Shown: in pieces, positions 16,374 through 17,589 of the stretch | How the letters are laid out: every line of letters starts with the position of its first letter | Position numbering within the stretch: the stretch's first letter is position 1 | Assembly: GCF_003334785.1 (NCBI RefSeq) | Contig: NZ_QOWV01000028.1 | Strand: one strand, 5' to 3' | Source of the DNA: Escherichia coli | Lineage (GTDB): Bacteria > Pseudomonadota > Gammaproteobacteria > Enterobacterales > Enterobacteriaceae | Length of the DNA: 30,698 nt | Program-made: the position numbers and the translations under genes | The notes under the pieces: model-generated | The model's input: the letters and a program-made list of their open reading frames with translations, nothing else | The model's database searches: none | Told to the model about the DNA's origin: nothing

Positions 16374-17273
16374 ATGCTCTCTCGACATATCAATTATTTT
16401 CTTGCCGTGGCTGAACATGGCAGCTTCACCCGTGCCGCCAGTGCGTTGCACGTCTCCCAACCTGCGCTTTCCCAGCAGATTCGCCAGTTAGAGGAGAGTT
16501 TAGGCGTGCCGCTGTTTGACCGTAGCGGGCGAACGATTCGTCTCACTGATGCAGGAGAAGTCTGGCGACAGTACGCCAGCCGGGCGTTACAGGAACTGGG
16601 GGCGGGTAAACGGGCGATTCATGATGTTGCCGATCTGACGCGAGGATCGCTGCGTATCGCCGTCACCCCCACCTTTACGAGCTACTTTATCGGCCCCTTA
16701 ATGGCGGATTTCTATGCGCGCTATCCCAGCATCACGCTCCAGCTACAGGAAATGTCGCAGGAGAAAATCGAGGATATGCTTTGCCGCGACGAGTTGGACG
16801 TTGGGATTGCCTTCGCGCCTGTGCATTCGCCGGAGCTGGAGGCAATTCCTTTACTGACAGAAAGTTTAGCGTTAGTCGTGGCGCAACATCATCCGCTGGC
16901 CGTCCATGAACAGGTGGCGTTGAGTCGCTTGCATGATGAAAAACTGGTCCTGCTCAGCGCGGAATTTGCCACCAGAGAGCAAATTGACCACTACTGCGAG
17001 AAAGCGGGGCTACATCCACAGGTGGTCATTGAGGCGAACTCAATTAGCGCGGTTCTGGAGCTGATTCGCCGCACTTCCCTTTCCACATTGTTACCAGCAG
17101 CGATTGCCACACAACATGACGGGCTTAAAGCTATTTCTCTTGCCCCGCCACTACTGGAGAGAACGGCGGTTTTGTTGCGGCGGAAAAATAGCTGGCAGAC
17201 AGCCGCCGCGAAGGCATTTTTGCACATGGCGTTGGATAAATGCGCGGTTGTTGGCGGAAATGAATCACGGTAG
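16374..17273 (+). CDS. cynR: LysR-family transcriptional regulator of the cyn operon
   Basis: ORF track 327 aa from 16290; canonical 299-aa CynR begins [41 protein letters not shown] (LysR HTH) = Met29 of the ORF (ATG 16374). Confidence 0.92.
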
Positions 17274-17589
17274 CCGCTGACACAGGTCTGCGGCTGGAAT
17301 TGCCTGATGCGCTACGCTTATCAGGCCTACGAGTTCAGTGCTCTACGTAGGCCGGATAAGGCGTTCACGCCGCATCCGGCATAAACTACAGCTGGCAGAC
17401 AGCCGCTGCGAAGGCATTTTTGCACATGGCGTTGGAGGAATGCGCGGTTGTTGGCGGGAATGAATCACGGTAGCCGCTGACACAGATCAGCGGCTGGAAT
17501 TGCCTGATGCGCTACGCTTATCAGGCCTACGAGTTCAGTGCTCTACGTAGGCCGGATAAGGCGTTCACGCCGCATCCGGCATAAACTAA
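17190..17589. repeat. Two tandem copies of a 200-bp unit (17190-17389 and 17390-17589), each holding the last 27 codons of cynR plus a REP pair; about 97% identical
   Basis: Direct comparison of the two stretches shows six substitutions over 200 bp; copy 1 is contiguous with cynR, copy 2 is a detached cynR 3' fragment followed by the same REP sequences. Confidence 0.9.

Follow-up and report, generated by a model that had tools for sequence, protein, structure and literature searches.

The convergent ends of cynR and codA in Escherichia coli raise the question of how the last part of a gene, together with the repeats that follow it, comes to stand there twice in succession, and whether this arrangement belongs to a single strain or to the reference genome as well. 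The window, by which we mean the entire 30,698-nt stretch of E. coli DNA that was analysed, is the reverse complement of the mhp-lac-cyn-cod-prp region and is 99.96% identical to MG1655, though it does not come from MG1655 itself. In it, cynR, which encodes the LysR-type regulator of the cyn operon, is intact at 16374–17273 on the + strand (299 codons plus stop; MG1655 b0338, 357791–358690), and codA (cytosine deaminase, MG1655 b0337) lies convergent to it at 17610–18893 on the − strand. An earlier note, made from the sequence alone, had described between them a tandem repeat of the cynR 3' end and its REP pair at 17190–17389 and 17390–17589. Indeed, Tandem Repeats Finder, a repeat search and direct comparison all bear this out.

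Repeat unit 1 (17190–17389, + strand) comprises the last 84 nt of cynR, a hairpin, a REP pair (BIME) and a 9-nt tail ending in CTAC; repeat unit 2 (17390–17589, + strand) follows it head to tail, and the stop codon of codA is reached 20 nt past unit 2. Tandem Repeats Finder reports one array at 17190–17592 with 2.0 copies, 96% matches and 0 indels at a constant period of 200, as in a tandem duplication, and the repeat search gives 97% identity between 17190–17388 and 17390–17588. The units differ at 7 of 200 positions (17207 C/T, 17237 T/G, 17238 A/G, 17258 A/G, 17286 G/A, 17289 T/A and 17389 C/A); the six substitutions previously counted are all correct, but the total is one short, since the last base of the unit (17389) was missed. 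Elsewhere in the window, adjacent 200-mers are at most 35% identical, and thus the repeat is far beyond chance.

Unit 2 opens with a C-terminal relic of cynR (17390–17473, + strand), which upon translation yields 27 codons and a stop without N-terminus or start codon. The residues at 25 of the 27 codons are identical to those of the CynR C-terminus, as expected of a gene relic or pseudogene, and in many genomes it bears the PGAP annotation of a pseudogene (‘hypothetical protein; incomplete; missing N-terminus’). Two of the coding differences between the cynR tail and the relic are synonymous and two are replacements, D-K to E-E, exactly as had been claimed. The relic had also been called in-frame and detached, which is true of its own intact 27-codon frame but not of its phase relative to cynR: it is out of phase because it lies downstream, after the cynR stop codon, at an offset of 200 nt, which is not a multiple of 3.

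Whether K-12 has one copy or two had been left as a question. The window is 100% identical to MG1655 over 17150–17650, and the cynR-codA intergenic region is 336 bp in both; thus, the K-12 reference has exactly these two copies. We consider it very likely that the feature is an old, vertically inherited cynR-codA tandem duplication of the K-12/B/C group, which we take to be phylogroup A, that it goes back to a single illegitimate join followed by later exchange, and that it most likely has no function of its own. One non-homologous join would have copied the 200-bp segment, consisting of the end of cynR, the hairpin and the BIME, and would have placed the copy directly after the original, so that cynR would stay intact and a dead C-terminal relic would arise. 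Subsequently, as the comparisons below show, the array has gained units through unequal homologous exchange within the BIME tract, giving rise to strains with three copies, and might have lost units in the same manner. Each unit has also exchanged alleles with the cynR tails of other lineages by homologous recombination, and the units differ at ordinary population polymorphisms because of that exchange.

The distribution of the duplication was examined in 5426 complete E. coli genomes with 60-mer queries (E ≤1e-10), counting as matches only sequences that span the entire 60-mer. A 110-nt junction query and a 1001-nt query were also tried as copy counters and were rejected, because they joined the cynR and REP pieces of single-copy genomes into one place and thereby gave inflated counts (1785 and 2258). 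The 3' end of cynR is present in 4199 of the 5426 genomes, and the duplication junction (60-mer 17360–17419) in 1541, or about 28%, a figure that overstates the natural frequency because complete RefSeq genomes over-represent laboratory K-12 and BL21 derivatives. Carriers include K-12 MG1655, BL21/B, J53 and E. coli C. About 198 of the 1541 have two junctions and thus three copies, an estimate based on the 1741 places at which the junction was found in 1543 records, no genome having more than two. In 1708 genomes, including the O111 STEC type, cynR is followed by the hairpin only, with no BIME and a 39-bp intergenic region; 884 genomes have one BIME with a longer right flank, and about 66, obtained by subtraction, have other single-copy types. 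About 1227 genomes are without the cynR tail, and in the cyn-less genomes a single BIME stands between lacA and codA, in agreement with the reported absence of cynRTSX from phylogroup B2 (PMC2617782).

The same locus thus holds 0, 1, 2 or 3 BIME units in different strains, and the duplication is common and inherited, yet a minority state. The earlier note would have regarded the repeat as an ordinary feature if the reference and most strains had the identical two-copy structure; the reference does have it, but most strains do not. In the E. coli reference lineage the duplication is an ordinary polymorphism, and one that is already known, as described below. Seven junction matches and seven right-flank matches fell on plasmid-labelled records, presumably F-prime or lac-region-carrying plasmids.

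A search of genome contigs with CynR found only two close relatives, one in E. whittamii and one in an E. coli-like contig of a metagenome-assembled genome (MAG) labelled Citrobacter sp.; the other 78 loci are LysR genes of 49–73% identity in unrelated contexts. The contig in the MAG (DXKH01000124.1) has an E. coli-type cynR-codA arrangement with a CynR of 97% identity and the no-BIME allele, and the MAG holds a second cynR, 73% identical, elsewhere. It looks like a chimeric bin or a transferred segment.

The BIME of unit 1 (17302–17380) consists of an iREP at 17302–17330, a 16-nt linker at 17331–17346 and a REP at 17347–17380, arranged head-to-head; we take the iREP to be of z1 type and the REP of y type, going by the consensus sequences. 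The BIME of unit 2 (17502–17580) is identical, so that each copy does have the same two REP palindromes that had been claimed for it, and the identity between units extends over 99 nt in all, from 17290/17490 to 17388/17588. The BIME folds as a single long hairpin (−41 kcal/mol, z −4.5), and queries containing the REP pair find a median of 21–39 matching places per E. coli genome, as expected of a dispersed repeat. The y REP gave sub-threshold matches to naRNA4, a REP-derived RNA, which were the only matches in the Rfam scan. The sequence GTAGGCCGGATAAGGCGTTCACGCCGCATCCGGC at 17347–17380 carries GTAG, and its inverted partner ends in CCTAC; a REP is described in the pertinent passage of PMC3333891 as an imperfect palindrome of 30–40 nt with GTAG at its 5' foot, two of which may be paired in opposite orientations with a short linker between them. 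In the single-copy allele of strain 100117, the last part of the linker and the beginning of the y REP are missing through a 16-bp deletion (equivalent to 17342–17357).

The two ends of the duplicated unit differ in their surroundings: on the left the unit begins within the coding region of cynR, with 112 nt still to go before the first REP, and on the right it extends 9 nt beyond the y REP and stops with CTAC. The novel join at 17389–17390 reads …CATAAACTAC↓AGCTGGCAG… (…AAACTAC↓AGCTGG…, boundaries being marked by an arrow here and below). Single-copy alleles of E. coli and E. whittamii read …GGAAAAAT↓AGCTGGCAG… (…AAAAAT↓AGCTGG) at the left and …CATAAACTAC↓GCTCGCT (…AAACTAC↓GCTCGCT) at the right. 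These flanks define the duplicated unit as exactly AGCTGG…AAACTAC, 200 nt, with a blunt join, and since the flanking bases differ (T versus C, A versus G) the join is unambiguous and has no in-register microhomology. An AGCT microhomology, found at the start of the unit and just after unit 2 in K-12, was considered and rejected; it implies a 199-nt period, and the A at 17589 on which it depends is a later substitution, because unit 2 ends in C in two-copy strains of the D6 type. All single-copy alleles are likewise without this A.

One possible maker of the join is TnpAREP/RAYT, the REP-associated Y1 transposase, which might, while bound to the BIME, have cleaved single-stranded DNA at a distant C↓T and rejoined the ends, taking the piece of cynR along; we consider this unlikely. 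The feature is already on record in the literature on this enzyme, since Ton-Hoang et al. (2012, Nucleic Acids Res 40:3596; PMC3333891), in their Discussion and Supplementary Figure S7, give codA-cynR as a BIME unit with a captured gene fragment, and their reading is that of such a TnpAREP reaction, by which the unit ‘sequesters’ this fragment. According to the passages of that paper on cleavage, TnpAREP can cleave far from the resident BIME; in vitro, C↓T sites over 400 nt away from a functional BIME are cut on both of its sides. Strand transfer was shown as well; each of the two cleavage sites must be a C↓T, and a C↓T is restored upon strand transfer (PMC3333891). The unit at cynR-codA has a y REP with GTAG in cis, as TnpAREP requires, it ends exactly at CTAC, and it has a C↓T 3 nt inside each boundary (between 17192 and 17193 and between 17386 and 17387). 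However, on neither strand does the join itself read C↓T (top, C↓A; bottom, T↓G), and a C↓T-to-C↓T join, tested on both strands, fails to reproduce it: the nearest such join would read …AAAC↓TGGCAG with a 194-nt unit on the top strand, or would give a 199-nt unit on the bottom strand, and neither is observed. Moreover, the same source, in the passages concerned, knows of no in vivo activity of TnpAREP and of no in vivo system (PMC3333891).

A one-step TnpAREP join would therefore have to be reconciled with a junction that, as it now reads, does not support it, and it may be possible only with later mutation. It is distinctly unlikely, in our estimate, that the blunt join by CTAC in the K-12, D6 and E. 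coli C backgrounds is a footprint left in vivo when TnpAREP/RAYT cut far from the BIME and captured host gene sequence, maybe repeatedly at one site, and the junction test does not favour this. If such a footprint were true, the locus would serve directly to assay RAYT activity in vivo, for which there is as yet no assay. For the illegitimate join that we prefer, template switching at stalled hairpins, or gyrase-type illegitimate recombination at the BIME, might conceivably have provided the first step.

Sequence differences among carriers bear on whether the join was made once. The bases 17407 T, 17486 A and 17589 A are confined to unit 2, and the first two occur in none of the sampled single-copy alleles and are common to the K-12-type and D6-type carriers, which argues for one origin. 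Similarly, the K-12-type right flank, found in 1513 genomes versus 1541 for the junction, is tightly linked to the duplication. A variant of the E. coli C type (26 records) has a 186-nt period with the same join and the K-12-type right flank, and both of its units have the same 14-bp deletion of a hairpin arm; this counts against a single origin, which would then need two imports or a short gene conversion. The relic of E. coli C/Cn5 is identical to the B1-type allele over the compared sites, which shows import of an allele into the relic. On balance, shared derived bases and flank linkage in ∼15 sequenced examples, together with the k-mer counts, favour one origin, with alleles then probably imported into either unit.

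The region just beyond unit 2, 17590–17612, which covers the 20 nt up to the codA stop codon and the last codA codon, has clustered differences between the K-12-type haplotype (GTAACCCAGTCGTTCAACG) and all others (…CAGCCGATYACCG), and many single-copy alleles have a 10-nt insertion there. It looks like a recombination boundary.

The differences between the two copies also point to exchange. At four of the seven (17237, 17238, 17258 and 17289), both states segregate among single-copy alleles of other lineages; for example, the residue pair is DK in MSHS 133, EE in O157, O111-type and VREC0761, and DE in 100117 and E. whittamii. Under independent mutation, the probability of at least four such coincidences is about 3.5e-4, a rough binomial estimate that uses 35 ‘polymorphic’ sites, about eight of which are alignment artefacts of the no-BIME alleles. 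Over their first 110 positions the units differ at 6, and single-copy alleles differ from one another at 2–11. These comparisons point to allelic recombination, rather than drift by point mutation, as the probable source of the inter-copy differences, and the suggestion in the earlier note of recombination between diverged alleles fits well with them.

A change in the number of units can be followed in the three-copy strains. When NRZ106056 and EC31 are aligned by unit, the middle unit has the unit-2 state at six sites but the final C of unit 1, and the last unit has a final A. Unequal exchange within the 99-nt BIME tract in which the units are identical would be expected to produce just such a middle unit. 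A third strain, PRO_A-1420, was judged to have three copies by its 536-bp intergenic spacing only.

These exchanges could also be read in the opposite direction, with two copies as the ancestral state of cynR-bearing E. coli and the single-copy alleles as products of collapse by recombination between units. Collapse of 200-bp direct repeats is easy and their creation is rare, and single-copy alleles are in fact mosaics of unit-1-like and unit-2-like states (for example, VREC0761 with C-GG-G-G-T). However, the pattern in VREC0761 is not a simple chimera of a left unit 1 and a right unit 2; E. whittamii and the cyn-less strains have one BIME and an unduplicated right junction; and, as noted above, 17407 T and 17486 A are found in no sampled single-copy allele. 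We therefore regard ancestral duplication as very unlikely and retain a single-copy ancestor with a derived duplication as the preferred reading.

The cyn-less strains provide a further observation on BIMEs at this locus. The lacA-cynX intergenic region of the window (13823–13895) has a z1-type iREP, a 16-nt linker and a truncated y REP, such that BIMEs bracket the cyn operon. Strains without cynRTSX have a single lacA-codA BIME (2981–3112 in two such loci), of which the left half resembles the lacA side and the right half the codA side, and this suggests that the cyn operon may have been lost (or gained) through BIME-BIME recombination.

The hairpin in each unit bears on whether unit 2 has been kept for a function. 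Hairpin 1 (17272–17295) overlaps the cynR stop codon and has the form AGCCGCTGA-CACAGG-TCTGCGGCT, with one stem mismatch, T at 17289; hairpin 2 (17472–17495) has a perfect 9-bp stem, AGCCGCTGA-CACAGA-TCAGCGGCT. Both the perfect inverted repeat in the second copy and the placement of the accompanying g-to-a change in the loop, of which it is the last base (17286/17486), are as the earlier note had described them. Predicted RNA folding energies are −15.9 kcal/mol (+ strand) and −13.8 kcal/mol (− strand) for hairpin 1, and −17.2 and −17.3 kcal/mol on the two strands for hairpin 2 (z about −5). The note had further read the t-to-a change in copy 2 as completing the stem, which has the direction wrong: A is found at the position of 17289 in E. 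whittamii, strain 100117 and the no-BIME alleles. From its occurrence in these alleles, the perfect stem is ancestral and the mismatch in unit 1, T at 17289, is derived, which reverses the proposed direction of change.

We considered the hairpin as an intrinsic terminator and rejected it, since the stem is stable but no T-run follows it on either strand; the terminator scan made no call, and passed over hairpin 1 because it lacks such a run. The hairpin might serve as a structure at the 3' end. A 14-bp deletion (equivalent to 17284–17297) removes its right arm in the O157:H7 and MSHS 133 alleles, as it does in both units of the E. coli C type.

If unit 2 were kept by selection, it might provide better termination or 3'-end stability for the convergent cynR/codBA transcripts, or insulation between them. 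REPs act as stabilisers of 3' ends, and the stop-codon hairpin is conserved, the no-BIME alleles showing a compensatory double change (AGCCACTGA…TCAGTGGCT). Against such a role, zero, one, two and three copies all persist in many genomes, some alleles have lost half of the hairpin, and the hairpin is without a U-tract; we judge maintenance by selection to be highly improbable. The duplication probably has no function of its own and, on the assumption of neutrality, does no more than place a second hairpin and a second REP pair in the region that the 3' ends of cynR and codBA share.

The earlier note had also suggested a REP-mediated duplication. In the form of homologous REP-REP recombination, as at the join-points of large REP-mediated tandem duplications, this has in its favour that REPs are abundant and dispersed and that one BIME lies inside the unit, but it is extremely improbable: single-copy alleles have just one BIME here, no REP is present at the left end and no homology at the join, and the positions of the two ends, in cynR and past the y REP, place the join outside the REP palindromes and exclude such an exchange. 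That the source strain underwent a recent replication slip, or that the repeat is an artefact of assembly, would explain the tandem form and nothing else and has a vanishingly small probability, as the note had already held for a fresh slip, given that the same junction is found in 1541 independently assembled complete genomes, including MG1655 (where the repeat is identical), BL21 and E. coli C, that the copies differ at seven sites, and that D6, C and three-copy variants exist.

The duplication can be placed among known REP-associated structures. It lies at the same locus as the codA-cynR BIME of Ton-Hoang et al. (2012), and by the text of the pertinent passage it is the same feature, with no difference in kind; relative to that passage, the present analysis adds the exact join, the copy-number census (0, 1, 2 and 3) and the allele mosaic. 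[quoted passage not shown] The large REP-mediated tandem duplications of Shyamala, Schneider and Ames (1990) reportedly extend over many kilobases with join-points inside REPs; these are also REP-associated and tandem, but at cynR-codA a unit of 200 bp is joined outside any REP. In the REPIN/RAYT systems of Nunvar (2010) and Bertels and Rainey (2011), REPINs are said to spread to new loci as units; the inverted REP doublet folding as one long hairpin is shared, but the doublet at cynR-codA was copied in place with flanking host sequence.

The cynR-codA duplication is a fossil in the reference genome and carries little weight for biology at large. It is nonetheless of use as a cheap marker by PCR size, with intergenic lengths of 39, about 130, 308/336 or 536 bp, by which the K-12/B/C group can be told from other E. 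coli. It further provides a clean example of a dead gene fragment that still exchanges alleles with the live gene of other lineages, and a candidate locus for finding out if changes in BIME copy number in vivo are driven by RAYT or by RecA.

Copy number of REP arrays varies elsewhere in the window as well. The prpB-prpC intergenic region (25092–25566) has a second tandem array, one of the BIME-2/atypical type, in which a REP pair recurs with a 93-nt period in 5.1 copies, one unit more than in MG1655. Many genomes differ from the window by ∼100 nt somewhere within 1–25000, and window positions 1–142 match three successive ∼100-nt repeats in the mhpE-mhpT intergenic region of MG1655.
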